A stretch of 64,000 nucleotides of DNA. Origin: a virus. Taxonomy: Duplodnaviria > Caudoviricetes. The stretch lies in IMG/VR virus record IMGVR_UViG_3300002220_006617, positions 1 through 64,000 of that record. The stretch is one strand, 5' to 3'. The notes beneath the pieces were generated by a model. The model did not search any database. It saw only the letters and a program-made list of their open reading frames with translations, and had not been told where the DNA came from. Position 1 is the first letter of the stretch. Each line of letters starts with the position of its first letter. Shown in pieces: positions 8,177-54,530 of this stretch. Made by a program: the position numbers and the translations under genes.

Positions 8177-8240
8177 TGGGTGCCCGATCGGGTAATCCCC
8201 CTGCCTGATGGACCGGGGGAATACTCCGTCGGTTCACCCA
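8177..8240 (+). repeat. conserved hairpin element copy 1
   Basis: TGGGTG-CCCGA-TCGGGTAATCCCC..CC-TGAT-GG..GGGGGAATACTCCG-TCGG..CACCCA. Confidence 0.9.
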
Positions 8241-8268
8241 ATACAAGGACATTAATCATTCCAGCAAG

Positions 8269-8595
8269 GTGATTAACATGAACCACAGACGACCAAATTT
8301 TATCAAACTACCGTCAGGCATGCTGGTGAACACCGGCAGTATTGTCAGAGTGTACATCCCGAACATGGGAACCACCCTGAACCGTTCTGAAACCACCGTT
8401 ACCCTGACACTGGATGGATGGGAATGGCCTGTATCCTATTGTGACGCCCCATCAAATGAATCGGCATTGAAAATACTCAATGCATTCTGCCAGTTCCTCA
8501 ACGAAGAGATCTCGTATAACCGCTTCCAGGACCTTGTTGATGCGCAACTCAAAGGAGATGCAGCAGTATGCATCCAACCGATCCTCTGCGGTTAA
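8269..8595 (+). CDS. hypothetical protein
   Basis: GGTGA RBS; start may be ATG 8278. Confidence 0.6.
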   Translation: MINMNHRRPNFIKLPSGMLVNTGSIVRVYIPNMGTTLNRSETTVTLTLDGWEWPVSYCDAPSNESALKILNAFCQFLNEEISYNRFQDLVDAQLKGDAAVCIQPILCG

Positions 8596-8834
8596 AGGTC
8601 GGAGACAGAGTTACTGCTAAAACCGCAAAGTCGTTGGGATACCTGGAAATCATATCCATCTATTCCAACACGGGCCTCACTGCCAGAGCCCTGCTTACCG
8701 GGAAAAATGCAGTATATTCCTGCGAAAACATCGAAGATCTCGTACTTCTGGACCGGGTAAAGAACAAGAACCCACGACCCCAGTCAACGGCTGAACACCG
8801 CCAGTACCAGAAAGACCTGCTCAAAAGTGATTGA
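8568..8834 (+). CDS. hypothetical SH3-like protein
   Basis: LKVGDRV motif. Confidence 0.55.
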   Translation: MHPTDPLRLKVGDRVTAKTAKSLGYLEIISIYSNTGLTARALLTGKNAVYSCENIEDLVLLDRVKNKNPRPQSTAEHRQYQKDLLKSD

Positions 8835-9061
8835 TCATGTACTCCCCAGAAGAGTTCGGGGCCTGGGCCCGACAGATCCACCGGGCCGGCGCTCATTTTA
8901 CGTTTGCCAACTTACCCCACGACAAGATCCGTGCCAGAAACGATACCCATCCGAACATCCAGGATCTGGCTGACCGCGGAATGATCCGGGTACTCCCGAA
9001 CGGTGCAATGATCAAAAGCATATTTTTCTACCACCTGGCATTACACGAGAGCAAACAATGA
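8831..9061 (+). CDS. hypothetical protein
   Basis: coupled ORF. Confidence 0.55.
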   Translation: MIMYSPEEFGAWARQIHRAGAHFTFANLPHDKIRARNDTHPNIQDLADRGMIRVLPNGAMIKSIFFYHLALHESKQ

Positions 9062-9348
9062 CAACCATGACTTACACCGGCATCGGGGATTATGCAAAGC
9101 ATATCGCCAATTTCAACGATCTGGCACTCAAAGAAGTGATTTCAAAATACTTCACTATTGAAGAAATCCCAGATTATGCCACTCAAGACGGTATGAACGA
9201 CACCCAAGTTATACGAACATGGTTCGTTTGCCGTAACGGAATCCGGATAATGGAAGTGATCCATACGTCACAAATCGACCTCAATTACGGTAAAATAAAT
9301 ATCAAATCCTCATATCGCTGGCTGATCGACCATGAAAAAACCGCATAA
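9058..9348 (+). CDS. hypothetical protein
   Basis: ATGA coupling. Confidence 0.6.
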   Translation: MTTMTYTGIGDYAKHIANFNDLALKEVISKYFTIEEIPDYATQDGMNDTQVIRTWFVCRNGIRIMEVIHTSQIDLNYGKINIKSSYRWLIDHEKTA

Positions 9349-9526
9349 AATCGAACGGACCCAAAAAGCGTTCCTGAAAGCCATGAAAAAGAAATTTGCA
9401 GAGGACCCGACTGCATCATCCCGCACACTGGCAGAACAAGCCGGCACCCTGCAGGTCCGGCATCCCCAGTATTACGACCATCTCACCCTGGTCCCGTATC
9501 AGACAACGCCCTGGGGGTTCCTGTAA
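9332..9526 (+). CDS. hypothetical protein
   Basis: coupled ORF. Confidence 0.5.
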   Translation: MKKPHKIERTQKAFLKAMKKKFAEDPTASSRTLAEQAGTLQVRHPQYYDHLTLVPYQTTPWGFL

Positions 9527-9732
9527 TGGTTGATATCGAATGTGCCTTAACTGAATCATTAATCGAAGAACTCGCAAAACGCAAAGGCGTCACCGCCCTG
9601 TTTGCATCTTCAAAAATGATCGACTATGAAGCAACCACCTTCACTCAAGGGCTGACACAGCAATATGCCAAAATCCATAAAATAGTGCAAGGATATGGCC
9701 CGGCAACAATCCTGGTAATTAAACATGACTGA
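9526..9732 (+). CDS. hypothetical protein
   Basis: TAATG coupling. Confidence 0.6.
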   Translation: MVDIECALTESLIEELAKRKGVTALFASSKMIDYEATTFTQGLTQQYAKIHKIVQGYGPATILVIKHD

Positions 9733-13077: not shown

Positions 13078-13392
13078 ATGAGCAGAATCTATCCCGGAGA
13101 TTATGGTATACTCATCACCTATGAAATTGCCAGCGGCCTTACTGCCCAGCAAGTGACTGATGCAACCCTTATCGAATTCACGATCATTTCACCCGAGACC
13201 GGATCAATAAACACGGTCACTGCCACACGAAACGTTCTGCAGTTACAGTATACAACACTTCCCGGAGAAATCGAAGAAGCCGGAGATTACGAGATCTGGC
13301 CCTGGTTACAATGGGGAAGCGTAACCGGCAAATGGCTGGACCCGATGTATCTATCCGTAACCCCCAAGAACGAGAAAATCGTTACCGCTTGA
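13078..13392 (+). CDS. Ig/BppU-like virion protein
   Basis: YPGDYG, LQYTT..GEIEEAGDY pattern. Confidence 0.6.
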   Translation: MSRIYPGDYGILITYEIASGLTAQQVTDATLIEFTIISPETGSINTVTATRNVLQLQYTTLPGEIEEAGDYEIWPWLQWGSVTGKWLDPMYLSVTPKNEKIVTA

Positions 13393-13408: not shown

Positions 13409-13463
13409 CCGCCCATCGGGTAACCCCCCGCCCTGATGGACGAGGGGATACTCCGTTGGTCGG
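13409..13463 (+). repeat. conserved hairpin element copy 2
   Basis: CCGCCCATCGGGTAACCCCCCGCCC-TGAT-GGACGAGGGGATACTCCGTTGGTCGG. Confidence 0.9.
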
Positions 13464-15159: not shown

Positions 15160-15477
15160 TTGCGCATAACAATCCACGACAACCCTGTAGAAGAAATGAC
15201 AAAGAATGTCGATACCCACTTTTTCAAAACCTCCCGCGAAAAAGATGTCTACCTGGCCCAACTTTCCAAACTAGCCGGCCAAACGTACCTTGGTGTCGAG
15301 GGTATCACTGATTATACCTACACCCCCCGAAAAGGACAGATAAAGTTGCTCATCGACGAAAAATCCAGAACCTTCTTCGATGTCCCCTCAATTGTAGTTG
15401 CCAAAGTCGAATGGTGTATCACCATGACAATAATACCGCTTCTGACGGAACTGCCCTTCCTGATCGCTGTCGATTAG
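15160..15477 (+). CDS. hypothetical protein
   Basis: AGGAG RBS, TTG start. Confidence 0.55.
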   Translation: MRITIHDNPVEEMTKNVDTHFFKTSREKDVYLAQLSKLAGQTYLGVEGITDYTYTPRKGQIKLLIDEKSRTFFDVPSIVVAKVEWCITMTIIPLLTELPFLIAVD

Positions 15478-15521
15478 GGTAACCCTTACGGCTGCGGCCG
15501 TTCGGGATACTCCTATCGCCA
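15468..15521 (+). repeat. conserved hairpin element copy 3 (TGCG loop)
   Basis: CGATTAGGGTAACCCTTACGGC-TGCG-GCCGTTCGGGATACTCCTATCG. Confidence 0.85.
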
Positions 15522-16660: not shown

Positions 16661-16880
16661 AATCGAGATTGCCATTCTCAGATCCCTGGAAACCACTCTC
16701 GGAACCGACCTTCAGAATCTCAACAGCACTGCTGACTACATCAAGCAAAACCCGCTTGAATGTCATATTGACGCAGGTATGATCATCACCGGTAACCGCG
16801 GCGGTATAGAACTTGCCCGGTACCGGGTCCAGGAACTGATCAAATCCCGTCAACCTGTTTCTATGGCCCCCACGGGGTAA
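16641..16880 (+). CDS. hypothetical protein
   Basis: ORF; stop lies inside hairpin copy 4. Confidence 0.55.
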   Translation: MISPKSKIEIAILRSLETTLGTDLQNLNSTADYIKQNPLECHIDAGMIITGNRGGIELARYRVQELIKSRQPVSMAPTG

Positions 16881-16922
16881 CCCCTGTGGCTGATGCCCCA
16901 GGGGATACTCCCTTGGTGGCCA
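16864..16922 (+). repeat. conserved hairpin element copy 4
   Basis: TGGCCCCCACGGGGTAACCCCTGTGGC-TGAT-GCCCCAGGGGATACTCCCTTGGTGGCCA. Confidence 0.9.
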
Positions 16923-17794: not shown

Positions 17795-17801
17795 ATTTTC
17801 A

Positions 17802-17955
17802 GCCTTCGTAGTTCAGTGGACGGAACGCCTGCCTTGTAACCAGGAGAGAACCCTAGAAAGGTTCACATGTGCCTTTCGATGATTGGGTGAGGTACACTAT
17901 AAGCCTCTCCTGACAAGTGAGCAGGATGCCGGGAGTTCGACTCTCCCCGAAGGCT
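17802..17955 (+). tRNA. tRNA-Thr(TGT) with 81-nt intron at 37/38 (17839-17919)
   Basis: GCCTTCG/CGAAGGC acceptor, CCTGC/GCAGG anticodon stem, GGGAG-TTCGACT-CTCCC; BHB-like CTTG/CAAG helix. Confidence 0.9.
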
Positions 17956-17957
17956 TT

Positions 17958-18380
17958 AGCCGAAATTGCAGTCGGCTCGTTATACTGGCTTGCGTTAAAA
18001 ACCAGCAGTTATCCGTGAAACTAAAAACGGAAGTAGGCTACCTAGTCAACTGCCGAAACCATGTTGATGCTTTCCGGTGATGTTCCCAAACCGGCGGGAT
18101 GGATGTTGCAATCATCTGCATCCCCGAGTAGGTCAGTTCCGGGTCATGCCGTGCTGATCCATTTGAGTCGTCTCGTAGAGAGGCTCAAAAAACCAAAACA
18201 TACATTTCAAGCATCACGCGATGACCGGCTCATCACCGGCTTCGTGCCTTGCCGTAAAGATGCAACAAGCAAGAGAAAGAGCAGTCTGCTAAGCCGGATA
18301 ATACATAGCTCGACCGCGGTTGACATTGAGATCAACCCGGATGGAAATCGAAGTTGCACGGCACTTTACGGCATTATTCA
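17958..18380 (+). ncRNA. putative large structured ncRNA
   Basis: many stems: TGATGCTT/AAGCATCA, CCGGCTT/AAGCCGG, TGCCGTAAAG/CTTTACGGCA. Confidence 0.6.
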
Positions 18381-18386
18381 ACAAGA

Positions 18387-18653
18387 GTTCCGTCGGCGTG
18401 GTGAGACACGCGAATCGAGTGTAAGAGAACTTCACGGTGAGACCGCGTAAAGTGAAAGACTCTGTAACATAGCGACATCCAACCACGGTATGGACATTAC
18501 CCCGTATACCCGGGATATGCCATATAAAAAGAGTACAGGTTTGCCTGTATATCGAAAGGTGTGGAAGTTGGAGGCACCAGGAGTCGGTATAAAACGAGGC
18601 GTCGGTACACGCCTATCTTACACGGAGCAGGTTTGAATCCTGCACGGAACACC
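18387..18653 (+). ncRNA. ~265-nt RNA with tRNA-like domain (tmRNA-like architecture)
   Basis: GTTCCGT/ACGGAAC acceptor, GTGTAAGA/TCTTACAC stem, GCAGG-TTTGAAT-CCTGC T-arm, ends ACC. Confidence 0.75.
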
Positions 18654-18656
18654 TTT

Positions 18657-18732
18657 GACCTCGTAACTCAGTCTGGTAGAGTGCCTGGTGGTATACACTG
18701 GGACGCCGCAGGTTCAAATCCTGCAGGGGTCG
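18657..18732 (+). tRNA. aberrant tRNA (9-nt anticodon loop TGGTATACA, identity undetermined)
   Basis: normal D and T arms; acceptor GACCTCG/AGGGGTC. Confidence 0.7.
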
Positions 18733-18928
18733 TTTTCCCGTTCACGCGGGATAATCTTTGAGGGTTATTTCCTCGTAAGGGGCGATCCAGAGCCTTGATC
18801 TGGATGTAGGAATAGACCGATGCCGACAAAAGAAGGTTACGTTTGCAGTGTAGCGGTAAATTACATTTGGGTTTCCGGCGATTCCGTTAAACCGGCAGGA
18901 GCGGCTGCGTGAACAGCCAAGATCCTTT

Positions 18929-19002
18929 GTCATCGTATCTCAGTTTGGTAGAGTGGGCGGTTGTTACCCGCCTTGTCGTAGGTTCGAGTCCTACCGATGA
19001 CG
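18929..19002 (+). tRNA. tRNA-Asn(GTT)
   Basis: GTCATCG/CGATGAC, GGCGG-TTGTTAC-CCGCC, G73. Confidence 0.92.
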
Positions 19003-19218
19003 TACCCCAACCGGAGCAATCTCCCAAGGGGCCCGTAGCGCTATTCCCGAAGGGAACAACATTTGTAAATCAGGTCGCAAAGCCTGGACTCAGGCGGGAG
19101 AAAACAGTTATCCACAAGGTTAACACCCTTCACGTTTGGATTACTTCAAAAAAACAGTGCTATGCGTAACCGGTTAGTGGCGAGTTCCCGGTCAGAGAAA
19201 AAACTTTGCCATTATAGA

Positions 19219-19312
19219 GGGGCCGTAACATAGCGGTCAAATGTACAGGTGGCAACTTCCTGTTCAGATGTGCGCCAACATCCTGACGCAGGTTCGAATC
19301 CTGCCGGCCCCA
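19219..19312 (+). tRNA. tRNA-Leu(CAA)-like with non-canonical G32G33 loop
   Basis: GGGGCCG/CGGCCCC, long variable arm, A73; loop GG-CAA-CT. Confidence 0.7.
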
Positions 19313-19414
19313 TAAGGTCTGACATGCGGAAGATCGTCTTGCCCCGAGGGCAGGGTGCGCTCAGATCTTAACGTGGAGTAATCCAGAAGCATGGCATGGA
19401 TGTAACTCTCAGGT

Positions 19415-19544
19415 GGATGCTGCGGAGCTGATCACTCCGGAGTCGGTTTATGTGTGCCCCAGGTTATAACCTGGTTGTCATCGGGGGCTCTGATGGGGTC
19501 GAGGCTTATCCCGCCCATCGGACCGTTCAATTCGGCACCATCCA
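19415..19544 (+). ncRNA. degenerate tRNA-like structure
   Basis: GGATG/CATCC ends, GGAG/CTCC D-like arm, GAGTC/GGCTC stem, CCG-TTCAATT-CGG T-like loop. Confidence 0.35.
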
Positions 19545-19640
19545 ATTTCTCTATGAACTGGCCAGATGTAGAGACTACTAGGCAAGATAACTGCAGGAAT
19601 AAATCCAGTTCAATCAAATACTGCCAAAATTGCCAATCAG

Positions 19641-19714
19641 GGGTCGGTAGCTCAGCTAGGCAGAGCGTCGGACTTTTAATCCGAAGTGCGAGGGTTCGAT
19701 TCCCTCCCGGCCCG
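19641..19714 (+). tRNA. tRNA-Lys(TTT)
   Basis: canonical cloverleaf, TCGGA-CTTTTAA-TCCGA. Confidence 0.95.
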
Positions 19715-19849
19715 TTCGCTAGTACCTGACCTCATGCAGGGAACGCGACATTGGTTCGTAACCTCCCAATGAAAGTTCCCGAATCAGATCGGTCGTCCGG
19801 TTAAACGGGTGAATGCTAAACACGGACCGACGTTTCGGGAACCAATATT

Positions 19850-19933
19850 GCTGCTGTAGCCAAGCCCGGCATGGCGACAGGCTGCTATCCTGTTCGTGGT
19901 AACACATCGCGGGTTCAAATCCTGCCAGCAGCG
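19850..19933 (+). tRNA. tRNA-Ser(GCT)
   Basis: GCTGCTG/CAGCAGC, ACAGG-CTGCTAT-CCTGT, variable arm, G73. Confidence 0.93.
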
Positions 19934-19948
19934 TCAGAAGGAACAATC

Positions 19949-20299
19949 ATGGACGAAAAAGAACTCAATAAAAACCTCGAGGTCCTCGACCGGTTCTGTG
20001 CATTTACCATCAGTACTCACGCAGAACATAAATCAGAATACTTTGTAGGAATTCGGGCAGGCGTCAAGATCCTCAAAGTGCGACTCGACGAAGTGTTCAA
20101 AAGACGTCACCAGTTCGAAGGGTATTCGCTCGATTCCGCAATCACTGTTGAAGAAATCAACCGGGGAAAAACCCTTGACGCATTAACCAATGAGATCAGC
20201 CAGTTGACGTTATGGGAATACACCCGCGACTGCAAGAATTTCAAAGATTTCAAACACCAGATTTCGCTGCTCAAACAAATGACGAGAAAAGAACCATGA
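19949..20299 (+). CDS. hypothetical protein
   Basis: first ATG after tRNA-Ser; coupled to rtcB. Confidence 0.6.
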   Translation: MDEKELNKNLEVLDRFCAFTISTHAEHKSEYFVGIRAGVKILKVRLDEVFKRRHQFEGYSLDSAITVEEINRGKTLDALTNEISQLTLWEYTRDCKNFKDFKHQISLLKQMTRKEP

Positions 20300-21510
20300 T
20301 AGAACTGAAAGGACGTTTCGGCAACGCACAAGTCATGATTGATACTGTCGAAGAAGACTGTATCAGCCAGATTCAGGGATTCCTGAACCATCCATTGTAC
20401 TGCAACCCCGTCAGAATCATGCCAGATACCCACGGCGGAAAAGGCAGTGTGATCGGGTTCACTATGAAACTCACTCACGGCGTATGTGCCAACGTGATCG
20501 GGGTGGACATCGGCTGCGGCGTAAACTGCTGGCAGATCGTTGACGGCCAAACCCTCTCATTCCCGGACATCGACACTGCTATAAGACGCCGGGTACCTCT
20601 CGGGATGACCACCCACTCAAAACCCATTGCAACCATCGCAGACGACTATGATTTTGGCAAAGCCCAAAAAAACGCCAGCAACTTCATCAATGCCATCAAC
20701 AAACGGTCCCGCGATTACGATACAAAATATCCAATACCGACCATAGATTACGAATGGTTCCTCAACCTCTGCAAAACTGCAAACGTCAACGAAGATCAGG
20801 TAAATGCCTCCCTGGGAACGCTTGGAGGGGGCAATCACTATGTTGAGATCGGCGTCGGCAAAGATACTAACCAACAGGTCCACCATTACCTGACTGTCCA
20901 CAGCGGTTCAAGAAACTTCGGAAAACGAGTGGCTGATTATTACCAGAAACTTGCTCAGGGCCTCACGTATAACCGCGGGTTCGACCGGGATCTCGCATAC
21001 CTGATTGACCAAAACGCCATGGACTATTACATGGCCATGATCTTTGTCCAGGAATTTGCATCCATGAACCGGGCCGTTATCGGTGAACTCATCAGAATAG
21101 CCGGCGACCTTGAACTTGGAGATTGTATTGAGTCAATACACAATTACATTGACTTCCGTGACATGATCATCCGGAAAGGTGCCATCAGTTCCTATGTCGG
21201 CGAGAAGATGGTCATCCCGTTCAATATGAAAGATGGCATGTGGATCTGTGAAGGAAAAAGCAATCCCGGCTGGAACTTCTCAGCACCACACGGGGCTGGC
21301 CGGATCATGTCCAGGACCCAGGCCAAGAAAACCATTGTCCTTGAGGATTTCCAGAAGGAGATGGAAGGCATCTTCAGCACCAGCGTAGGCCCGCAGACCC
21401 TGGATGAAGCCCCGGGGACATACAAACCGGCAGAACTCATCCAACAGGCCATTGGACCTACAGCCACCATCCTCACCAAAGTCAGGCCGGTTTATAATCT
21501 CAAAGCATAA
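20296..21510 (+). CDS. rtcB: RtcB RNA ligase
   Basis: MPDTH, GVDIGCG, GTLGGGNHYVE, HSGSR, HNY, PHGAGR, DEAPGTYK. Confidence 0.97.
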   Translation: MIELKGRFGNAQVMIDTVEEDCISQIQGFLNHPLYCNPVRIMPDTHGGKGSVIGFTMKLTHGVCANVIGVDIGCGVNCWQIVDGQTLSFPDIDTAIRRRVPLGMTTHSKPIATIADDYDFGKAQKNASNFINAINKRSRDYDTKYPIPTIDYEWFLNLCKTANVNEDQVNASLGTLGGGNHYVEIGVGKDTNQQVHHYLTVHSGSRNFGKRVADYYQKLAQGLTYNRGFDRDLAYLIDQNAMDYYMAMIFVQEFASMNRAVIGELIRIAGDLELGDCIESIHNYIDFRDMIIRKGAISSYVGEKMVIPFNMKDGMWICEGKSNPGWNFSAPHGAGRIMSRTQAKKTIVLEDFQKEMEGIFSTSVGPQTLDEAPGTYKPAELIQQAIGPTATILTKVRPVYNLKA

Positions 21511-21599
21511 CCCTTTTTTCCAGAATCACCGGCATGTCCAGAATTGCAGGTGCAACTCCTGCCGTGCCAATCCGGGTGTTTTACCCGAGGAACTTACTC

Positions 21600-22181
21600 A
21601 TGAATCGCACAGAACTCTGTACTACCACAACCCCGTTTACCAACTACGTTGTCAACCTGCTTGGCGGTCCCGGTGCCGGAAAGTCCACAAACGCACTTCT
21701 CCTCACCGGCAAACTGAAAAAAGCAGGTTATAACGCAGAATATACCGGGGAATATGCCAAAGACTGCGTCTGGAGAAAAGCAGAAAACATCCTCGAAGAC
21801 CAAATCTACATCTTCGGCAAACAAAACAATCGCCAGTTCCGGCTGAAAAACCAGGTCCAGTTCACCATCACCGACTCACCTCTGATTCTCAACCTTCATT
21901 ACGGAAACCATCTCGGCCCCACGTTCAAGAAACTGGCTCTTGAAACGTTCAACAGCTACAACAACATCAATTTCTTCATCGAACGTACCAAAGTCTACAA
22001 CCCGGTCGGCCGCATGCAGACCGCCCAAGAATCTGATACCATCGCCAATGAAGTCATCGAACTCCTCCTCAAAAACCAGGTCCCGTTCACCCGTATCAAC
22101 TCGGATTGGGATCTCGATGATCTTGTAGACCTGGTCCTCAAAGCCACAAAAACCACGATAAATCCCTTAATTGTCTGTTAA
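21600..22181 (+). CDS. P-loop nucleotide kinase (NadR/AAA_28-like)
   Basis: GGPGAGKST, ITDSPL, YNPVGR. Confidence 0.85.
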   Translation: MNRTELCTTTTPFTNYVVNLLGGPGAGKSTNALLLTGKLKKAGYNAEYTGEYAKDCVWRKAENILEDQIYIFGKQNNRQFRLKNQVQFTITDSPLILNLHYGNHLGPTFKKLALETFNSYNNINFFIERTKVYNPVGRMQTAQESDTIANEVIELLLKNQVPFTRINSDWDLDDLVDLVLKATKTTINPLIVC

Positions 22182-22228
22182 AGGGCAATAAGACCCTTTA
22201 ATACTAAGCATCAACAATCTTCTAATCA

Positions 22229-22247
22229 ATCAGCAACAATCACAGGC
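22229..22247 (+). repeat. conserved leader motif ATCAGCAACAATCACAGGC copy 1
   Basis: identical 19-mer at 39270; 15-mer core at 39688; each 7-10 nt before an ATG. Confidence 0.7.
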
Positions 22248-22255
22248 AACACACT

Positions 22256-22513
22256 ATGACAAACATTGAATACCGACTAAGCGGCCTCCTGATAGGTAAT
22301 GAAGATTGTCCACAATTCAATCCGGGCATTACTGACTCAACCGGCCGAATCCCCTGCACGTATATTGAACACGGATGTTCTCGGCACACGCAGGTACGGT
22401 CCAAACTCCACCTGGCCCAAGACAACAAAGACGTGAAATGCTATGCTTTCCCCTCGAAGACCAATGTCTTCATGACCGGGAACCAGTTCAAGCAGGACCA
22501 TGTCTCCGATTAA
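22256..22513 (+). CDS. Cys-rich hypothetical protein
   Basis: ORF after leader motif. Confidence 0.55.
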   Translation: MTNIEYRLSGLLIGNEDCPQFNPGITDSTGRIPCTYIEHGCSRHTQVRSKLHLAQDNKDVKCYAFPSKTNVFMTGNQFKQDHVSD

Positions 22514-22832
22514 AGGATCAAAAGACGAAGACGTAGTTACTGAAATCGTCGCTGAATTCCTTTGCAACCACCCTGGAAAAGTATTCATCAACACCAAATC
22601 AGTATACAACGAATGTAAAGACGTTTTCATTGCACTTGCCCCGGAGTTCTGGAAATACACTCCCAAGTACAAGAAAACCATGATCTCCAAAACCCTGAGC
22701 AAACTGGGAAGTAAACAATCAGCCAACCATCTGGCACCCTATCATATAAACCGGGTCGCCGTCAACCAAACCGTAATCAACCTCAAAAAGTCACATACGG
22801 TTATGCCCCTCGGCTGCAAGTCCATTTCATGA
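22500..22832 (+). CDS. hypothetical protein (wHTH-like)
   Basis: ORF; weak similarity to 29225-29512. Confidence 0.55.
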   Translation: MSPIKGSKDEDVVTEIVAEFLCNHPGKVFINTKSVYNECKDVFIALAPEFWKYTPKYKKTMISKTLSKLGSKQSANHLAPYHINRVAVNQTVINLKKSHTVMPLGCKSIS

Positions 22833-23029
22833 CCGTGGACCCCAAAACTACCGAAACCATTTACGTCAACCTTGCAATGACCGTTGCCGTTGAGATAGAG
22901 TCGGGAACCCCCAAACGAACTATCAAAAAACGAGCCGTTGACATTGCCAACGATGTTGCGAAAAAGGATGAAAAATTCTTTTTTACCCAGAAAAACATCA
23001 CCGAAATCAACCCCGAAAAAAGGTATTGA
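22829..23029 (+). CDS. hypothetical protein
   Basis: ATGA coupling. Confidence 0.55.
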   Translation: MTVDPKTTETIYVNLAMTVAVEIESGTPKRTIKKRAVDIANDVAKKDEKFFFTQKNITEINPEKRY

Positions 23030-24213: not shown

Positions 24214-24274
24214 TCGACTTTTTCGAGGTAACCCCTCCGCTTGATAGCGAAGGGGATACTCTCTCATAAGTCGA
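24214..24274 (+). repeat. conserved hairpin element copy 5
   Basis: TCGACTT..GAGGTAACCCCTCCGCT-TGAT-AGCGAAGGGGATACTCTC..AAGTCGA. Confidence 0.88.
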
Positions 24275-30186: not shown

Positions 30187-30250
30187 TCCGTCGAATCGGG
30201 TAACCTCTCCGCTCTTTGATAAGAGCGTATCGGATACTCCATTCGCCGGA
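30187..30250 (+). repeat. conserved hairpin element copy 6
   Basis: TCCGTCGAATCGGGTAACC..GCTCTT-TGAT-AAGAGC..GGATACTCCATTCGCCGGA. Confidence 0.85.
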
Positions 30251-39712: not shown

Positions 39713-40327
39713 ATGAACGCGACAACACGGGCTGCTTTATGTAGCTCATCTTCTGAATGTTGGAATTCACCCTCGCACATACTTGACTCAGTTTACCGGG
39801 TCCTGGGGCACGTAGATCTCGATCCCTGCAGCAATATGGACTGGTTCTGGGACATTGGCCTGAAAACGCATAATGTCAGAGCAGAACTACATTTCTGCGA
39901 ACGGGTAAATGGCCTCCTCCAGCGATGGGATGGAACGGTATACCTTAACCCCCCGTATGGCGACCAGCTCCTCCCCTGGATCACAAAACTGGATTACGAA
40001 TACCGGGCCGGCCACGTAACCGAAGCCATTGTACTAATACCCGGCCGGCTCGAGACGGAATGGTTCAACATTTTGTCACCGCATTACATCCGGTGCGAGA
40101 TCCTCACCCGCCTCCATTTCAGCAACTCCAAGAACTCTGCAACATTCCCCTCGGTCCTGTTCTACCTGGGCACCCGCGAGAACCGGTTCATTGAAGAGTT
40201 TAAACAATACGGCAACATTGTCAAATGCATTGCACCATCAACCTACGAGAGAAAAACCCGAAGAAAGATTACAGGAGTCAATCTCACAGAAGAAAGAGTC
40301 AATGTTCAACAGATGGTCCTGCTCTGA
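39713..40327 (+). CDS. DNA N6-adenine methyltransferase (phage Dam-type)
   Basis: DLDPC, NGL, YLNPPY, ETEWF, RLHF. Confidence 0.92.
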   Translation: MNATTRAALCSSSSECWNSPSHILDSVYRVLGHVDLDPCSNMDWFWDIGLKTHNVRAELHFCERVNGLLQRWDGTVYLNPPYGDQLLPWITKLDYEYRAGHVTEAIVLIPGRLETEWFNILSPHYIRCEILTRLHFSNSKNSATFPSVLFYLGTRENRFIEEFKQYGNIVKCIAPSTYERKTRRKITGVNLTEERVNVQQMVLL

Positions 40328-40340
40328 TCCTGAACCCGTT

Positions 40341-40408
40341 ACCGTGCCCCTCACGGGTAACCCCTCGCCCTGATGGACAAGGGGATACTCCGTCGGGGCA
40401 CATACGGT
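40341..40408 (+). repeat. conserved hairpin element copy 7
   Basis: GTGCCCCTCACGGGTAACCCCTCGCCC-TGAT-GGACAAGGGGATACTCCGTCGGGGCAC. Confidence 0.9.
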
Positions 40409-43380: not shown

Positions 43381-43440
43381 TCGTCCCCGATCGGGTAAAC
43401 CCCTCGCCTGATGGCGAGGGGAATACTCCGTCGGGAACGA
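43381..43440 (+). repeat. conserved hairpin element copy 8
   Basis: TCGTCCCCGATCGGGTAAACCCCTCGCC-TGAT-GGCGAGGGGAATACTCCGTCGGGAACGA. Confidence 0.92.
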
Positions 43441-43489: not shown

Positions 43490-43843
43490 ATGACAGACGA
43501 CGACAACACCCAGAACCCTACCCAGGGTACCGATATGAACAGCCCCCAGACCACCGAGCCCATCACCGAGGTTAACGCCAGCGGAGAGGACAACCAGACC
43601 GGCCCGAACAGCGAGCCCGTCGAGTACGTTGCATCTGTCAAGGGTGTAGACAAGGTATTTGACCACGCGATCACCCTCCAGGACCTCATCGACTTCACCG
43701 AGGAGCAGGGTGTTAAGAAGTTCTCGGCATACGCGCCCGAGACTGCAGAGTTCCCGAACGGCCAGAAACTCAAGGCCCGCATGTTCCCCTACGCCGGGGA
43801 CGTCGAGCTCCGTGAACTCATGGAGCCCAAGACCTTCAACTAA
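43490..43843 (+). CDS. putative ubiquitin-like (beta-grasp) protein with acidic disordered N-terminus
   Basis: ~70-aa strand-strand-helix-strands domain just upstream of E1; no terminal GG. Confidence 0.55.
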   Translation: MTDDDNTQNPTQGTDMNSPQTTEPITEVNASGEDNQTGPNSEPVEYVASVKGVDKVFDHAITLQDLIDFTEEQGVKKFSAYAPETAEFPNGQKLKARMFPYAGDVELRELMEPKTFN

Positions 43844-43870
43844 TTTTTTAAAATAACGGATTGAACAACC

Positions 43871-44533
43871 ATGCCACCCACTACCCCAACTGCAGACTCC
43901 CTCTATGCCCGCCAGGACCTCATCGGTCAGGTAAAACCCGTTGAATCAGCCATAGTCATCGGAACCGGTGGCGTAGGTTACTGGGTAGCCCTTGCCCTTG
44001 CAATGACCGGCACCAAAAAACTGTTTCTCATCGACTTCGATAACGTGGAAGAGTCCAACCGGTCCCGCATCCCGTTCAAGAAAAGCGACGTAGGCAAACC
44101 CAAGATCATGGCACTCGCCAACTTCATCAACGAGATCCGGCACGGCCACTGTGAAGTAGTCCCACTCGAGATGCGCTGTGAAAAGGTCCCGCCCATGTTC
44201 CGGAACGATCCCGCCTGGAAAACCGCTGCGGTCTACGATTGCCGTGACAACACTGACGAACTCCCGGACTTCTACAATAAATGCAGGATCACCGGCGGTT
44301 ACGACGGGCTCAAAATGAGTCTCCACCGGAACCCGAACAACGAGGATATCTTCGGTAACGGACCGACCCGGTATACCATCACCCCCTCGTATGCAATCAT
44401 GCCCATGTTACTGGCTGCCATGATCGTCGGATACTCAACCATCCCATCAATGCAGAAAGAGACGGACCTCGACAGCACGTTCACCTTCCAGGAACTCGTC
44501 AACCACAAGATCTTCAACGAGGCTGCATCGTGA
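43871..44533 (+). CDS. ThiF/E1-like adenylyltransferase
   Basis: YARQ, VIGTGGVG, DFDNVEESNRSR, GKPK, DCRDN. Confidence 0.92.
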   Translation: MPPTTPTADSLYARQDLIGQVKPVESAIVIGTGGVGYWVALALAMTGTKKLFLIDFDNVEESNRSRIPFKKSDVGKPKIMALANFINEIRHGHCEVVPLEMRCEKVPPMFRNDPAWKTAAVYDCRDNTDELPDFYNKCRITGGYDGLKMSLHRNPNNEDIFGNGPTRYTITPSYAIMPMLLAAMIVGYSTIPSMQKETDLDSTFTFQELVNHKIFNEAAS

Positions 44534-45024
44534 GCGGTTACTACATGACATTCCTTGTTTATTCCGAGGAAAACACCTATCAAGGCGCCATAAAATCTGC
44601 CAAAGATGAGATCGATGCCATGTACGCCGAGGGTTCACTAGGCCCTGATGATCACGGATACATTGACCCAATCGAAAAGATAATCCCGGCAACTAAAACT
44701 GAACCGTTCAGAAACGCAATATCCGAACTCAACCTGAAACGTGCCACAGCCTACCAGTACTACGTCGAGAAAGCCGTAGAGATTACAAATAAAGCCGGAC
44801 ACACACTCGCAAACTTACCCCTCGAAGAACAGGAACCCAGCAAATATAACGACATGTTCGGCCATTACATGAAACTTGCCGGACTGATCCACGGCCGGGA
44901 TTTCACTGTTCAGGGAATCCTCTACGATACGGAAACCTTCGAATGCGGTATCACCCAGGACCGGCTCAACGAACTCCTTAAACATCCTAATGGTTTCTAT
45001 CTGGTCCCCATGGTCGTGGGTTGA
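44530..45024 (+). CDS. hypothetical protein
   Basis: coupled ORF. Confidence 0.6.
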   Translation: MSGYYMTFLVYSEENTYQGAIKSAKDEIDAMYAEGSLGPDDHGYIDPIEKIIPATKTEPFRNAISELNLKRATAYQYYVEKAVEITNKAGHTLANLPLEEQEPSKYNDMFGHYMKLAGLIHGRDFTVQGILYDTETFECGITQDRLNELLKHPNGFYLVPMVVG

Positions 45025-45479
45025 TGATCCCACCATCAATCTGCATCATTTCCTGCGGTAAAGCCAAATACTGGGACGCTCATCCAGATGACGCAACCAA
45101 CACCGTAAAACCTGCCCGTGACGTTTACACCGGTCCACTGTTCAAAAAATGTGCAGAACTTGCTGAACTGACGCATCCATACAACTGGTACATCCTCTCA
45201 GACAAATACGGACTGATAACACCGGACCAGTTAATCCAGAACTACGACGTATCCCCAGAAGTCATCAAAGACAACAACCTGTTCCGGTTACTCGTAGAGT
45301 TCCAGGCTCTTTCTCTCAACATTCTCAAAACCGAACGTGTCGTAGCACCTGTCGGTAAAATCCACGAATCTGTCATCAAATCTGTTTTCACAGATTCAGG
45401 ATACATAAACCCCCTGGCTGGCATGTCCCAGGGCAAACGCATGCAAACACTCACCAGACTCATCAAGGACAAACCATGA
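45021..45479 (+). CDS. DUF6884-like protein
   Basis: IISCGKAK..PARDVYTGPLF..WYILSDKYGLI..YD. Confidence 0.75.
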   Translation: MMIPPSICIISCGKAKYWDAHPDDATNTVKPARDVYTGPLFKKCAELAELTHPYNWYILSDKYGLITPDQLIQNYDVSPEVIKDNNLFRLLVEFQALSLNILKTERVVAPVGKIHESVIKSVFTDSGYINPLAGMSQGKRMQTLTRLIKDKP

Positions 45480-46198
45480 AATCCCATACTACAAAACCCG
45501 GCCTCCGGCTCCGCGCACCTGACATTAACGACGACGACGACGTATTTGATTCCGGCATTGTCCTCATCAAATCCCATGACCTTTACATCGGCACTGAACT
45601 CCTGGCATATTGCGACGCAATCCAGCAGAAATTTCCCCGGCTGGAATGGAGCATCATGCTCAAAGGCAAATGGATCCCCGAAGGATATTCAGTCAGCAAA
45701 TCTTTTGCAATCCCAGACCAGGAAGTTGCCGGCGCTGAAGTCAACCTGAACGACCGTGAAGTTGCTGCCCTGACCGCCCAGGGGTACAACACGATCATCC
45801 ACAGTCACCCGTTTCCTTCAAGTTCATTCAGCTCATCCGACATGGAAACCCTGACATCTACGGCTGAGTGTTCCATCCTCTACAGCGAAGGTGCATTCAC
45901 CACCGCCACGATCGGCATCCGTGTAGCAACAGGACTCAAACTCCTGATCATGCCCGATATCAAGATGATCCATGACATTCACATGGACCTCCCGGACAAC
46001 ATCACGTCCAAGATCAAAACCCGGTCCTTCGATCATTTCCACGGGTGCGTATCCGTCACGAACCGCCCACGGTCCGTCAGCGACGCAGTCAGCAGAACCA
46101 AAAAAAACGGCGAAACAAATCTGCTGCTCGACGAGGCCACAACAACCACCGTACATGAAACTTTCGAACTCTACGACAACCTCCTTTCAGAGTTTTAA
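45476..46198 (+). CDS. JAB/JAMM metalloprotease
   Basis: LEW, IPDQEV, IHSHP....FSSSD. Confidence 0.85.
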   Translation: MKSHTTKPGLRLRAPDINDDDDVFDSGIVLIKSHDLYIGTELLAYCDAIQQKFPRLEWSIMLKGKWIPEGYSVSKSFAIPDQEVAGAEVNLNDREVAALTAQGYNTIIHSHPFPSSSFSSSDMETLTSTAECSILYSEGAFTTATIGIRVATGLKLLIMPDIKMIHDIHMDLPDNITSKIKTRSFDHFHGCVSVTNRPRSVSDAVSRTKKNGETNLLLDEATTTTVHETFELYDNLLSEF

Positions 46199-46200
46199 CC

Positions 46201-47949
46201 ATGTTCACCTTTGAGATCTGCAAAGATTCCGATAACAGTTACATGCTGAACCCTATAGGAGATACCGATAGCGATCCAGCATTCAACCGTGCATCCATGA
46301 AATTGCCCTCCATGGACGACTGGAGACGGTTCCTCATTTATTGTACAGAAAACGAGTTCTGTTGCATCCCTCTCAAGGACAAAAAAGCATTACTCCGGTC
46401 AAAATACGGCAAGAAATCCATATCGTTTGTGCTTGAACCTGACGAAGAGATCAATGCACTTGTACCTCATGACGAACTGGTTTCATTACTCCCGTTATTT
46501 GCCATATGGCTCCAGTCACTCAACACCGCCAGGTACCTCATTAACCAGCGAAACAAAGGACATGACCTCACCAGGATCACCAGTGCAACCGAACTTATTG
46601 AATCCAAAGATCTGGTCGTCTCGCTCCTCAAGAAAACTCCCGACTGTTCCATGAAACTCGTGGTCAACGGAACCCCGTTCGTCATGGACATGACCAACCA
46701 GAGCTGCGACACTGACTACCCCATCACCGATCTGTCTGCCTGTAAAAACGAGGATATGCAGGGAATCTACAACACGTTTGCCAACCTGGTTCAACTTCTC
46801 CGTGAAAACGCCGAGACCCGGATCAGCGTACTCGAAAAAAAACAGAACGAAATTGAACAAACCCTCCGGACCAAAATCTTCTCGGAAGTCATGCAAAAAC
46901 TTGCAACCTTCGTATCGCATGGCTGGACGTTCAACAAAGCCGGATATTTCACCTACACCCATCAAATCAACTGCACCCACCTAGTAATCTCGGCATCATA
47001 CCTTACCGGTGAAAGTGTTATAGATACAGACGACCTGCTCTCTCTTGAACTCCCTGAAAATCTCCGAGCAAAATTCCAGATCCCCGGTATCATAACCCCC
47101 TATAAAGACAAAATTGAAGGGGTAACCATCGTCAGCGATTCCAAAAAACCCGCTTACCACCCTCATTACGACAGCCAATACGGCTTATGTATCGGAGACT
47201 TTGCCAAAAGGCCGTTTGACGAAATTATCAATCTGCCCCAGGCACTCACCCAGATCAATTATAACAGTATGTGGGGCGGTAGAGCAAATGAAGAACTCAA
47301 TCGCTGGATAAAAACCATCAAGGAAATGCCCAAAAACAAACTCGATCAGTTTGTCCGGAAAGCCAGAAATGAAGACAGCGACGTCTTCTGCAAAGACCGG
47401 GAATACGATGAAGAACCCATCCCTGCGGTCCCAGAACGGGCGACCATAACAATTCTCAGTCCGGACGGCGCATCTGCCAGAGCAACCGTAACTGCTGCAG
47501 AGATCATCAACCCGGGAATGGCCAACCCACAGACAATAGTTGCAGCAACTCACACGAGCCCCCAGGTAATCATTCCGCCAGAATTGGTCATACCCCGGGC
47601 AAGAACGCCCAATATCATGGAAGCCTGGACTAGCAACCCCGACGTAGAACAGATCGGTCAAGACATGCAGATCCTAACAGACATCATCAACGAACACAAT
47701 GATCAATTCAGGCGCGACTATGACGGGGCAATCGAGTTCGATCAAGACGGTAACCGTAGTCGGATCAACGCTGGACTACCCCCGATAAACCTTGCAGAAG
47801 AACGAAGCCATCCGGCAACAACCATACGGATAATCCCGCTTGGGGGGGACACAGACGTATTCGAAACACCGGCTCCAGTCGCCCACAACCCGATCCCGGC
47901 CCATGTTGAAGACTATGAGAACGACGATGAAGTGTTCGGCAGCCACTAA
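46201..47949 (+). CDS. large protein with putative E2/UBC-like domain
   Basis: coiled coil then YHPHYDSQYGLCIGD and LTQINYNS; disordered C-terminus. Confidence 0.6.
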   Translation: MFTFEICKDSDNSYMLNPIGDTDSDPAFNRASMKLPSMDDWRRFLIYCTENEFCCIPLKDKKALLRSKYGKKSISFVLEPDEEINALVPHDELVSLLPLFAIWLQSLNTARYLINQRNKGHDLTRITSATELIESKDLVVSLLKKTPDCSMKLVVNGTPFVMDMTNQSCDTDYPITDLSACKNEDMQGIYNTFANLVQLLRENAETRISVLEKKQNEIEQTLRTKIFSEVMQKLATFVSHGWTFNKAGYFTYTHQINCTHLVISASYLTGESVIDTDDLLSLELPENLRAKFQIPGIITPYKDKIEGVTIVSDSKKPAYHPHYDSQYGLCIGDFAKRPFDEIINLPQALTQINYNSMWGGRANEELNRWIKTIKEMPKNKLDQFVRKARNEDSDVFCKDREYDEEPIPAVPERATITILSPDGASARATVTAAEIINPGMANPQTIVAATHTSPQVIIPPELVIPRARTPNIMEAWTSNPDVEQIGQDMQILTDIINEHNDQFRRDYDGAIEFDQDGNRSRINAGLPPINLAEERSHPATTIRIIPLGGDTDVFETPAPVAHNPIPAHVEDYENDDEVFGSH

Positions 47950-52323: not shown

Positions 52324-52718
52324 TCCCCGGTTTACCTGTAATGCATTACTACTGCGAGTTTGAATTCTACAAAAAAAGATATCCTGGCTGGTCAGATGAC
52401 ATCAGTAACAAACTCAGTGTAGCCGGTCCTTTTTTCACCAAAGAAATAGCTGACCGGATTGCCCAGGATTTCAATGGTATTGATTGGATAGCTCGAAAAC
52501 AACCCGAATTCGAACTCTCGGATATTGATTACAATCAAAAACACGATTGTTATTATTATTTCGACCCCATGGAACACGACCCAAACATCCAGGATCAACA
52601 CTGTGAATGGCCCGGTTTTGATGCCCAGGATCCTTACGGTAACCTCCTCCACCTTTACCATATGGGTGAATTTGACTGGTACTATAAACTAATCCAATCA
52701 ACTTTTTTGAAAAGTTAA
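52320..52718 (+). CDS. hypothetical protein, paralog of upstream gene
   Basis: similar P.F....AD, YYFD, WPG.D..PYG. Confidence 0.6.
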   Translation: MIPGLPVMHYYCEFEFYKKRYPGWSDDISNKLSVAGPFFTKEIADRIAQDFNGIDWIARKQPEFELSDIDYNQKHDCYYYFDPMEHDPNIQDQHCEWPGFDAQDPYGNLLHLYHMGEFDWYYKLIQSTFLKS

Positions 52719-52731
52719 ATGTAACCGGTCA

Positions 52732-52936
52732 CACACACCTTCCGCGAAAGTATTACCGGCAGAAAAAAGGAACCCCGCTTGTGTGGATGGTAACCCATCC
52801 CCACTGGGTATAGTGGATTGTTGTTACGATTAGATTTTGATTGTATATAATGATTGTGAATATAGTAAAGAATAAAGGAAATTTTTCCCCCTATGCCAAA
52901 AAAGTGGTGGTAATTGTTTCGCGCGGGGTGTGTGTG
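52732..52936. other. putative replication origin: inverted ORB-like repeats flanking AT-rich DUE
   Basis: CACACACCTTCCGCGAAAGTATT (52732) and inverted copy 52912-52936; third copy 54282; next to cdc6. Confidence 0.7.
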
Positions 52937-53001
52937 TCTATACCCCACGCAACACAGTATTGATATATTTTCACGAGTACAACAACACACAATAATCAAA
53001 G

Positions 53002-54258
53002 GTGGTTATTATCACAGACGACGAAAACACTGCATTTGGCCTCGATCACAGAGGGATAATCAAAGATGGATATCCTTTAACATCTTTCTATCGGCCGACA
53101 AACATCCTGGCAAGAGACACTGAAAAACTCGAGATCGGCAAACTGTTTGCCCCGGTCCTGAAATACAACGGGAGTCCGATCAACGCATTGGTTTACGGTA
53201 AATCCGGAACAGGCAAAAACCTGGTTGTTGAATACATAACGGATCTTTTCATCCAGAGTGCTGAAAAACGAGGGAAAAAATACATCAGCATCGTTGTCAG
53301 CTGCAAGATGAGAACACCGAAATGGATACTCCAGCAGTTACTATCGGCTGTCGACCCGAGCCTTTCGGATTATGGTACAGGTAGATCTGTCGGAGAAGTT
53401 TACACCAAACTCCACCAGAACATGAAACGAAAGAACGCATCACTCGTTGTCATCCTGGACGAAATTGATGCATTACCGCCTTCAGACCTCCTCTACGATC
53501 TCAGCCGCATTAAAAAAGATCTACCGCAGGACCTCTATCTGGTCATCATCGGGCTGACCAACAACTTCAACGAACACATCAAAGACATTGCCATTTCATC
53601 CTCATTTGGAAGACGAACCATAGACTTCCCCTCGTATACCACAGAAAACCTCAGAGACATCCTCAACGACCGGCTGTTTGCATTATACCCGGACACCCTC
53701 GAAACCGGCGTCATAGAATACATCGCAAAGAAATCAGCAATCGAACACGGCAATGCACGAAAAGCCATTGAACTTCTCGCAACCTCCGCAGAATTCGCTG
53801 AGAATGAAAAAGACCCTCAGATCACATCTATCCACGTCAACCGGGCATCCGACTACATTGAAATCGACAACCTGATAAAAGACCTGATACAATCGCCAAA
53901 ACACACGGTCCTGGCATTCATTGCGATAGCAGAGCTTCAACATAAACTCGGAGGATCTGCAGTCTTATCCTCGCCACTGTACAAACACTACTGCATAGTC
54001 TGTGACGAAAACCTCTTAACGCCACTATCCAGCACACGGTTTGCAACCATCTGCAGCAGCCTTGGATCCACCGGGTTAATAGATGTCACCGAACGAGTAG
54101 GGAGTCACCAGAAAGGCCGTACCCGAGTCCACAAGATCACCCTGACCGAAAACCGGCTTCACCAAATCATGGCGGTCCTCGCCAAAGAACACGGCTACAT
54201 CATCAACGGTCTTTCAACTCAAAAACTTTTATCCCTCCCAGATTTCAATGAGAAATGA
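53002..54258 (+). CDS. cdc6: Orc1/Cdc6 replication initiator
   Basis: YGKSGTGKN, VILDEID, LLYDLSR, FPSY, HGNARKAI, C-terminal WH. Confidence 0.95.
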   Translation: MVIITDDENTAFGLDHRGIIKDGYPLTSFYRPTNILARDTEKLEIGKLFAPVLKYNGSPINALVYGKSGTGKNLVVEYITDLFIQSAEKRGKKYISIVVSCKMRTPKWILQQLLSAVDPSLSDYGTGRSVGEVYTKLHQNMKRKNASLVVILDEIDALPPSDLLYDLSRIKKDLPQDLYLVIIGLTNNFNEHIKDIAISSSFGRRTIDFPSYTTENLRDILNDRLFALYPDTLETGVIEYIAKKSAIEHGNARKAIELLATSAEFAENEKDPQITSIHVNRASDYIEIDNLIKDLIQSPKHTVLAFIAIAELQHKLGGSAVLSSPLYKHYCIVCDENLLTPLSSTRFATICSSLGSTGLIDVTERVGSHQKGRTRVHKITLTENRLHQIMAVLAKEHGYIINGLSTQKLLSLPDFNEK

Positions 54259-54475
54259 TTATATACCAGAACTGCACCCGGACACACCTTCCGCGAAACT
54301 ATTGGCGACAACTATATATACCCGAACAAAACGGAGCCTTTAAACCCGAGATTTCCAATTCAAGTCATTTATTTATATACAACCTCTCTTTTCTTTTCCT
54401 CATACCAATAAATACCAGCACTCGGCCGCACGGCTGATGCCGCGGCGTCCCATCATCTCAGTTACCGGATAACGT

Positions 54476-54530
54476 AGTTCCCATTCGTAACCCGTGCCGC
54501 TTGATAGCGTCAGGGTTATCGATGGGAACT
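54476..54530 (+). repeat. conserved hairpin element copy 9 (variant)
   Basis: AGTTCCCATTCGTAACCCGTGCCGCT-TGAT-AGCGTCAGGGTTATCGATGGGAACT. Confidence 0.7.

Follow-up and report, generated by a model that had tools for sequence, protein, structure and literature searches.

Analysis of a 64,000-nt stretch of archaeal virus DNA (the window, which is the initial 64 kb of the 127,665-bp IMG/VR record IMGVR_UViG_3300002220_006617) identified a family of hairpins, 55 to 65 nt in length, that recur on one strand between blocks of genes and share an invariant core. Dispersed, co-oriented stem-loops at gene junctions are an already known kind of element, in phages and, for 3' ends, in Haloferax. New here is an unnamed family with an invariant bulge-and-mismatch core, an archaeal host, and an echo in a halophile lineage that is unrelated in its genes. 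Tentatively, and at somewhat less than even confidence, we read the hairpins as RNA punctuation, that is, as leaky terminators, 3' stabilisers or processing sites that would be bound by a predicted factor.

Two covariance models were run on the whole genome: R1, built from the canonical copies, and R2, a broader model. R1 gave the eight canonical copies in the window 55 to 73 bits and their reverse strands 12 bits or less, and the R2 scan (127.7 kb) recovered all 11 hairpins and no others. The initial annotation of the window had described nine hairpins, all on the same strand; the nine are present, including the variant at 54,476 (B1), and the models added two outside the window, namely, a ninth canonical copy and a second variant (B2), sister of B1 (Table 1). 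All 11 hairpins were on the + strand, and all 11 were intergenic. The further claim that the element belongs to no named family was borne out in Rfam (release 15), where only tRNAs matched at gathering thresholds and where, in regions with five of the hairpins, no match at a permissive E<=10 overlapped them, CRISPR (clustered regularly interspaced short palindromic repeats) direct-repeat (CRISPR-DR) models included.

The z-scores of RNA folding of the 11 hairpins against dinucleotide shuffles ranged from -2.2 to -7.2. From the base outward, the element consists of a variable outer helix (H1, 3 to 7 bp), a pyrimidine-pyrimidine mismatch and a variable helix (H2, 3 to 5 bp), followed, after a one-base 5' bulge or mismatch, by the conserved helix H3, in which N-G-G-G-T-A pairs with T-A-C-(T)-C-C-N and the T is bulged out. 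Above H3 come an A.A mismatch, a C3-4/G3-4 helix, a small internal loop, a variable apical stem and the loop, which reads Y-TGAT-R in 10 of the 11 genome copies, the exception being copy 3 (TGCG). This is largely the shared design described initially, with its variable outer stems, GGGTA / TAC-(T)-CC pairing, A.A mismatch, C-run/G-run helix, variable apical stem and TGAT or TGCG loop; the part that did not stand is the G.T wobble, as the minimum-energy fold bulges the T. Over the genome, TGAT is the commonest tetraloop of perfect + strand hairpins (13 TGAT loops versus 4 ATCA loops), and as a word it is rarer than ATCA on that strand (512 versus 1,136 occurrences).

The alignment of the nine canonical copies contained 13 invariant columns, while pairwise identity among copies ranged from 46 to 88%, with a mean of 63%. 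Pairing was found in 91.7% of the cells, both sides had changed in 10 of the 17 pairs, none of 500 shuffles matched these values, and the signal was lost when the partner columns were slid. Similarly, the arms of each copy paired with one another better than arms swapped between copies (p ~1e-5 for the outer and 8e-5 for the apical arms). Thus, the covarying stems that had been proposed are real, and strong folds together with significant covariation mean that a folded single strand of the hairpin is under selection.

A metagenome scan yielded one true homologue, on contigs L034 and L037, which likewise follows a stop codon; its core is identical and its apical stems are longer. Since L034 was found by an exact-core search, the identity of its core is partly an effect of the search, and the shared design weighs more than the letters. 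This contig holds four copies in 10 kb. Two variant hairpins lie in a 190-nt cassette (about 25 nt, the hairpin, about 100 nt and ATG) whose copies are 94% identical and head two unrelated genes. At L034:4798-4852, a 54-nt two-hairpin element interrupts a hairpin copy exactly after GTAAC and has GTAAC as its own end; it resembles a miniature insertion of the IS200/IS605 type, akin to palindrome-associated transposable elements (PATEs). Further small repeated hairpins occur in L034 at 1949-1990 and 7908-7949.

On contigs L083, L085 and L086, a long hairpin of the same design, placed after a stop, occupies most of the large intergenic gaps. In these halophile versions, a bulge of 1 to 2 nt on the 3' arm adjoins two helices, one short and containing A/T and the other of G/C, and the cores covary: GGTAACC occurs with GGTTAC-T-CTC, GATAGACC with GGTCTAT-T-CTC, and GATGACC with GTCATC-A-CCC. 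The proteins of L034 and L083 are strongly acidic (D+E, 18 to 21%; K, less than 2%; median isoelectric point [pI], 4.2 to 4.4, against a virus median of 6.0), and neighbouring genes in the L034/L083 lineage match Pfam families named after halophiles. Unlike the virus, this lineage is therefore of a haloarchaeal type. No protein was shared between the 216 open reading frames (ORFs) of the virus and about 53 kb of this lineage (tblastx, E<=1e-3; phmmer, E<=1 and E<=0.1), and one protein of the halophile lineage had no match in phage and plasmid records. What the two lineages have in common appears to be a bulged helix after a gene block. As no protein is common to them, any common factor would more likely be encoded by the hosts than by the viruses.

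For its part, the fold gives no verdict on which strand is active. The summed minimum free energies (MFE) of the canonical copies were -304.6 kcal/mol for the + strand and -334.1 kcal/mol for the - strand, the latter thus folding better, and the - strand folds at least as well under both RNA and DNA parameters. Over the copies in the virus, 2 G.U pairs were counted on the + strand versus 9 on the - strand. The + strand holds nearly all the genes and is A and C rich throughout; by our estimate, an A/C-rich coding strand alone favours C.A appositions on the + strand at a ratio of roughly 2:1, and therefore the observed 9:2 is not significant. The corresponding counts (+ versus -) were 2 versus 0 for the L034 variant and 25 versus 19 and 73 versus 85 for the halophile set. 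A conserved wobble had earlier been taken to favour folding of the top strand; this argument fails, as the T is better read as a bulge, the - strand folds as well or better, and the halophile counts are balanced or reversed.

The positions of the hairpins relative to the genes were in agreement with the initial annotation, which had placed most of them at or just after a stop codon and ahead of a T/A-rich tract. Seven of the 11 copies began at -10 to +41 nt relative to a stop codon; the upstream stop lay at a median distance of 26 nt, and the next start followed at a median of 78 nt (range, 19 to 369 nt). An 8-nt window made up wholly of A and T was found at most 40 nt downstream of 7 of the 11 copies, compared with 6% of random genome windows and 15 to 23% of other intergenic windows, and a T run of at least 4 within 40 nt downstream of 6 copies, compared with 6.5% of random genome windows.

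In five copies (1, 4, 6, 7 and 8), the hairpin is followed at only 19 to 49 nt by a start codon that has AAGGT, AAGGA or GGAGT at -10 to -14. This space is too short for a TFB recognition element (BRE)/TATA box, a transcription start and a Shine-Dalgarno leader, which would place the hairpin inside the transcript of the downstream gene. We infer that these genes are read from hairpin-containing transcripts, the hairpins being probably internal to polycistronic RNA.

The modules delimited by hairpins are those of PCNA, of the tRNAs and RtcB, of the RNA ligase, RlaP and CCA-adding enzyme, of a putative ubiquitin-like protein (Ubl) with ThiF, and of Cdc6. The hairpins are located in an accessory region of 77 kb, bounded by the portal gene (5.4 kb) on one side and by the scaffold and capsid genes (83.7 to 86.4 kb; capsid, 85.5 kb) on the other; one further hairpin lies 3' of the baseplate genes, and the late structural block (84 to 118 kb) has none. 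Neither conserved flanks nor target duplications were found around the copies, and no paralogous or duplicated genes adjoin them. Metagenome contigs from four runs over the region of copies 1 to 5 were near-identical and bridged several hairpins unchanged; at the hairpins they showed neither variants nor joints nor informative ends.

For a same-strand, covarying family whose core is invariant and which stands at the junctions of gene blocks, the best reading is still, as first proposed, a cis element that a protein would recognise where transcription units end. RNA polymerase would read through the stop codon and the hairpin, and some transcripts would end at the following U-rich or A/U-rich tract, making the hairpin a leaky, hairpin-assisted terminator such as a reporter assay has shown in Haloferax. 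The hairpin, stable and irregular, would then shield the upstream message against 3' exonucleases, while read-through RNA would contain the hairpin and be the message for the block that follows. The invariant core, with its bulged U on the 3' arm by G-C/U-A pairs, its A.A mismatch and its C/G helix, would be the docking, and possibly the cutting, site of a putative protein, more likely encoded by the host than by the virus. In a secondary and compatible role, the dispersed homologous hairpins could act as seams for the exchange of gene blocks.

In Haloferax volcanii, which belongs to the same phylum, 503 mapped 3' ends have a hairpin at most 10 nt upstream, and one such hairpin, tested in a reporter, gave 59% termination (Berkemer 2020, PMC7237163). 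T stretches are the main intergenic signal there (PMC7237163). Unlike the viral hairpins, which are virus-borne, longer and stereotyped, those of Haloferax form no family with an invariant core. A similar case in an archaeal tailed virus is halovirus HF2, whose repeated intergenic elements organise transcription units; these are, however, direct repeats of 29 to 58 bp that carry A/T motifs and serve as promoters, and not covarying hairpins (PMC8707807).

Several observations weigh against RNA punctuation. In the virus, folding of the complementary strand is equally good or better, and therefore the fold alone does not establish the + strand RNA as the active form; moreover, the shared orientation of the genes makes the direction of transcription inseparable from a replication-linked strand. 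Only 11 of about 68 intergenic gaps of at least 45 nt carry a hairpin. No candidate binding protein or nuclease was found in the searches for viral RNase III, EndA and Cas6 or in the protein comparison with the halophile lineage, and R1 and R2 found no hairpin in pieces of about 20 kb from relatives L060 to L072 (38 to 47% portal identity). Finally, an ordinary terminator or stabiliser would need no invariant core.

Phage T7 carries about ten RNase III sites, irregular one-strand hairpins with a conserved internal distortion that lie between early and middle genes in polycistronic transcripts, and cutting leaves a 3' hairpin that stabilises the upstream message. The viral hairpins resemble these sites in being irregular, confined to one strand, intergenic and distorted at a conserved place; they differ in that their sequence is unrelated and no RNase III domain was found in the archaeal virus. 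RNase III is not known from most archaea. Domain searches, which covered the virus genes, found no RNase III, EndA or Cas6. A site for RNase III or for the bulge-helix-bulge (BHB) endonuclease was rejected in view of the absence of viral RNase III and EndA and of the geometry of the core, which has a 4-bp C/G helix between symmetric 1x1 or 2x2 loops and no staggered 3-nt bulges; in a BHB, two 3-nt bulges on opposite strands are 4 bp apart. Readings of the core as a K-turn, a sarcin-ricin motif or a BHB were rejected by eye, the required G.A pairs or staggered bulges being absent.

A bolder and rather doubtful proposal is that the hairpins are the cis sites of a structure- and sequence-specific cutting system of viruses and mobile DNA in methanogenic and halophilic Halobacteriota. 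Such a system would be either an archaeal equivalent of the RNase III sites of T7, in which an endonuclease, probably of the host, would cut polycistronic viral RNA into block-sized messages, or a folded-DNA form that would swap gene blocks without an integrase.

The A/T-rich tracts bear also on an improbable explanation, that the hairpin is part of a 5' regulatory cassette of the downstream gene, an insulator joined to a promoter or leader that would serve as a portable seam for gene swaps. The model is the promoter-early stem-loop (PeSL) of T4-type phages, a terminator-promoter composite of the same logic (Arbiol 2010, PMC2839356; Comeau 2014, PMC4122927). As in PeSL cassettes, dispersed and co-oriented stem-loops stand at the junctions of small accessory genes in a variable (hyperplastic) region, which here splits the structural module; as in PeSLs, too, a terminator-like hairpin is followed by an A/T-rich element, with TATA-like boxes after most viral copies, and the whole is a candidate seam for modular gene exchange. 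The 94% identical cassettes of L034, each with a variant hairpin before an unrelated gene, point the same way. However, PeSLs carry a bacterial sigma-70 early promoter, whereas an archaeal promoter has no room before the Shine-Dalgarno motif in 5 of the 11 viral cases, in spite of the enrichment of A/T-rich tracts downstream. The viral hairpin is also longer (22 to 25 bp), with conserved bulges and mismatches, an invariant core and an archaeal host. Furthermore, the viral copies keep no common flank, so that the hairpin alone is conserved, the upstream stop is usually close while the next start can be as far as 369 nt away, and no duplicated genes adjoin the copies.

We consider it unlikely that the hairpin acts at the DNA level, as a cruciform or a folded single strand that would serve a strand-specific nickase, a structure-specific, integron-like recombinase acting without IntI, or primase or helicase loading on the lagging-strand template. 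Integron attC sites bear an R''/R' box consensus, RYYYAAC ... GTTRRRY, at the base of the stem. The viral hairpins are like attC sites in that structure is kept over sequence, in fixed unpaired bases (bulges and mismatches at conserved positions that recall attC extrahelical bases), in the single-strand fold, for which the - strand is at least as well suited, and in the post-ORF position and single orientation that match integron cassettes. They are unlike them in that the virus has no integrase, R/L boxes or cassette array and in that the conserved part lies centrally in the stem and not at its base. Thus, attC was rejected: IntI is absent, no GTTRRRY is found, the 3' arm holding ATACTCC, and the basal stems are the variable part. 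No tyrosine recombinase (PF00589) matched at E<=1 in the whole record and no Y1 (HUH) transposase (PF01797) matched in the genome, where TnpB (PF07282) gave only a 15-bit sub-threshold match; the absence of a recombinase and of an HUH enzyme weakens the DNA-level reading.

Other observations speak for a DNA-level site. Part of the invariant ATACTCC recurs in phage nick consensus sequences, as TACTCC(G) in phiKMV-like phages and as TACT in phage tf; those nicks fall on one strand only, 4 to 14 per genome (PMC3517423). The 54-nt insert of L034 sits precisely in the core, where it follows GTAAC and finishes with another copy of this pentamer. The word GTTACC(G), typical of an iteron-like array elsewhere in the genome, also stands 6 to 15 nt 5' of hairpins 2, 7, B1 and B2 (4 of 11). 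Against this, known nick sites are not hairpins, and the 7-nt phiKMV match, picked out among many motifs, could be due to chance. The covarying halophile core fits recognition of a structure better than that of a fixed DNA word, and the contigs of four runs span several hairpins unchanged. The array itself (genome 77,300-77,820; L009:13300-13820) is dense, with about 22 GTTAC/GTAAC sites in units such as GTTACAGT and GTAACCGTC, and precedes a 109-aa ORF without a Pfam match.

We think it most unlikely that the hairpins are selfish or domesticated mobile palindromes, akin to repetitive extragenic palindromes (REPs), miniature inverted-repeat transposable elements (MITEs) or PATEs, that would have spread within and between viruses without a dedicated function. 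The family is, to be sure, dispersed, intergenic and imperfectly palindromic, it occurs in two lineages without a detectable common protein, and the halophile contigs carry other small hairpin repeats and a nested insertion. However, the copies are old and divergent, their pairing has been kept by compensatory change around an invariant core, and all 11 lie on one strand, with no target-site duplications, conserved flanks or transposase. A search of 185,579 species genomes with the strict core pattern gave 16 single matches in unrelated taxa, at about the level of chance, and no true copies. Pattern scans of IMG/VR likewise gave only single, chance-level matches, BLAST of one hairpin against GenBank phage records gave no match, and a full-text literature search with the core words returned nothing relevant. 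An element derived from REP and its transposase (RAYT) or from IS200/IS605 was rejected on the lack of PF01797, the sub-threshold PF07282 match and the chance-level matches in cellular genomes.

We give hardly any credence to a solitary CRISPR-repeat mimic, an RNA anti-CRISPR that would titrate host Cas6 or effectors, as the initial annotation had suggested in second place. The 3' half of the hairpin is loosely like type I-E repeats, and the virus encodes a Csx16-like protein of the Cas_VVA1548 family and therefore engages CRISPR systems. Nevertheless, no CRISPR-DR family matched a hairpin at E<=10, the 8 nt that would form the handle are base-paired within helix H3, and no array with such a repeat was found in the 185,579 genomes. 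At 55 to 65 nt, compared with 28 to 37 nt for a CRISPR repeat, the element is twice the length of one, its copies (46 to 88% identical) differ widely, and Cas6 was not found in the virus. The identity as a CRISPR repeat was rejected on the same grounds.

Two side observations touch on CRISPR. A 123-aa ORF at window 63032-63403 (+) matched Pfam Cas_VVA1548 (Csx16-type, CRISPR-associated) above the cut-off, with an E value of 1e-10, and its product may act in counter-defence against type III CRISPR signalling. On L083, L085, L086 and L034, a purine-rich word (ATTGAAAG, GTTGAAG or GTTGAAGC), which equals the 8-nt 5' tag of type I-B/III CRISPR RNAs, occurs 10 to 25 nt past the hairpins and is followed by a conserved G/T-rich leader; it may be a coincidence or a repeat mimic.

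The gene products identified in the genome were the large terminase subunit (TerL), Mu-type portal, RtcB, RNA ligase, Cdc6/Orc1, C5 and Dam-like methyltransferases, PCNA, MCM, ERCC4, an HD protein, RlaP, a CCA-adding-type nucleotidyltransferase, ThiF, RNase H and baseplate J; five or six tRNA genes lie together in a cluster. The named relatives of the portal protein are from Methanomicrobiaceae and Methanoregula, and the source DNA is present in hydrocarbon and oil-sands metagenomes. Because of these relatives, this gene set and this occurrence, the virus is assigned to the tailed viruses of Methanomicrobiales-type methanogens. The closest portal relative has 71% identity, and no TerL relatives were found in IMG/VR or among GenBank phages.

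The MCM gene is split by the record ends (genome 126978-127664 and window 3-941): the last ORF of the record covers the oligonucleotide-binding (OB) fold and P-loop positions 3 to 99, and the first ORF covers P-loop positions 133 to 224, with about 33 profile positions unaccounted for between the ends. The split shows that the genome is circularly permuted and close to complete. The portal gene (window 5450-6910) lies 77 kb from the scaffold and capsid genes (genome 83743-86390), compared with 5 to 9 kb at most in relatives L060, L067, L070 and L072. No Mu-F homologue was detected 3' of the portal gene, and only short ORFs occupy 6.9 to 8.2 kb, up to hairpin 1.

Within the accessory region, a toolkit for RNA repair and tRNA extends over window 17800-35016 (+) (Table 1), and a co-oriented cluster headed by a ThiF/E1-like protein (43871-44533) lies directly 3' of hairpin 8, at window 43490-47949 (+). 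The exact 13-mer AAATTACCAAAAG occurs at window 54605 and at eight sites at genome 69,494-81,908, only on the + strand and 5' of start codons; its sector (54.6 to 82 kb) differs from that of the canonical hairpins, and it is probably a sector-specific promoter-like element. A GC-rich non-coding sector at genome 79,290-81,580 (L009) contains several other strong hairpins, two of which (79,426 and 81,276) have 7-bp stems and TGAT loops and are non-members by R1 and R2.

Table 1. Hairpins and RNA-related genes of the virus. Positions are those of the window unless marked as genome positions.
Feature	Position	Strand	Score and fold	Details and context
Hairpin 1, canonical	8177..8240	+	R1 72.6 bits; RNA MFE -38.8 kcal/mol; z -4.3	ATG 8278 with AAGGTGA Shine-Dalgarno motif, 37 nt past hairpin
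Hairpin 2, canonical	13409..13463	+	R1 71.6 bits	16 nt past stop of ORF 13078-13392; T6 run about 28 nt downstream; GTTACC 14 and 28 nt upstream
Hairpin 3, canonical	15468..15521	+	R1 61.2 bits	TGCG loop; overlaps stop codon of ORF 15160-15477; T7 run begins 5 nt past hairpin
Hairpin 4, canonical	16864..16922	+	R1 73.5 bits; z -4.9	ATG 16962 with Shine-Dalgarno motif, 39 nt past hairpin
Hairpin 5, canonical	24214..24274	+	R1 66 bits; z -6.1	AGG/CTC covariation in core stem; 1 nt past stop of C5 DNA methyltransferase gene 23274-24212
Hairpin 6, canonical	30187..30250	+	R1 55.6 bits	Long apical stem; 26 nt past stop of ORF 29597-30160; 5' of RNA ligase gene
Hairpin 7, canonical	40344..40401	+	R1 71.9 bits	16 nt past stop of Dam-like methyltransferase gene 39713-40327; ATG 40434 with Shine-Dalgarno motif 32 nt downstream
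Hairpin 8, canonical	43381..43440	+	R1 71.5 bits; z -7.2	Perfect 9-bp apical stem; 5' of ThiF gene cluster; ATG 43490 with Shine-Dalgarno motif 49 nt downstream
Hairpin B1, variant	54476..54530	+	R1 18.7 bits; R2 36.8 bits; z -7.1	Core CGTAACCC / GGGTTA-T-CG; 3' of Cdc6/Orc1 gene 53002-54258
Hairpin B2, variant, sister of B1	genome 64,389-64,446	+		Just beyond window
Ninth canonical hairpin	genome 119,044-119,101	+	Found by R1	Beyond window
Extra Rfam tRNA match	17802-17955	+		154 nt; not called by ARAGORN
tRNA cluster	18656-19935	+		
RtcB	20212-21510	+		
AAA_28 protein	21534-22181	+		
HD protein	26192-26797	+		
RNA ligase	30437-31753	+		
RlaP	32094-32798	+		
CCA-adding-type nucleotidyltransferase	34279-35016	+		

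The hairpin offers a way to approach how large archaeal viruses divide long, one-directional gene arrays into expression units. It is a candidate cis signal in archaea whose part in termination, RNA stabilisation or processing can be put to the test, with the halophile versions directly in Haloferax reporter systems, and it predicts a trans-acting factor. In the virus, the hairpins mark the borders of accessory modules for RNA repair, putative ubiquitin-like conjugation and replication, and they may explain how such modules are gained.

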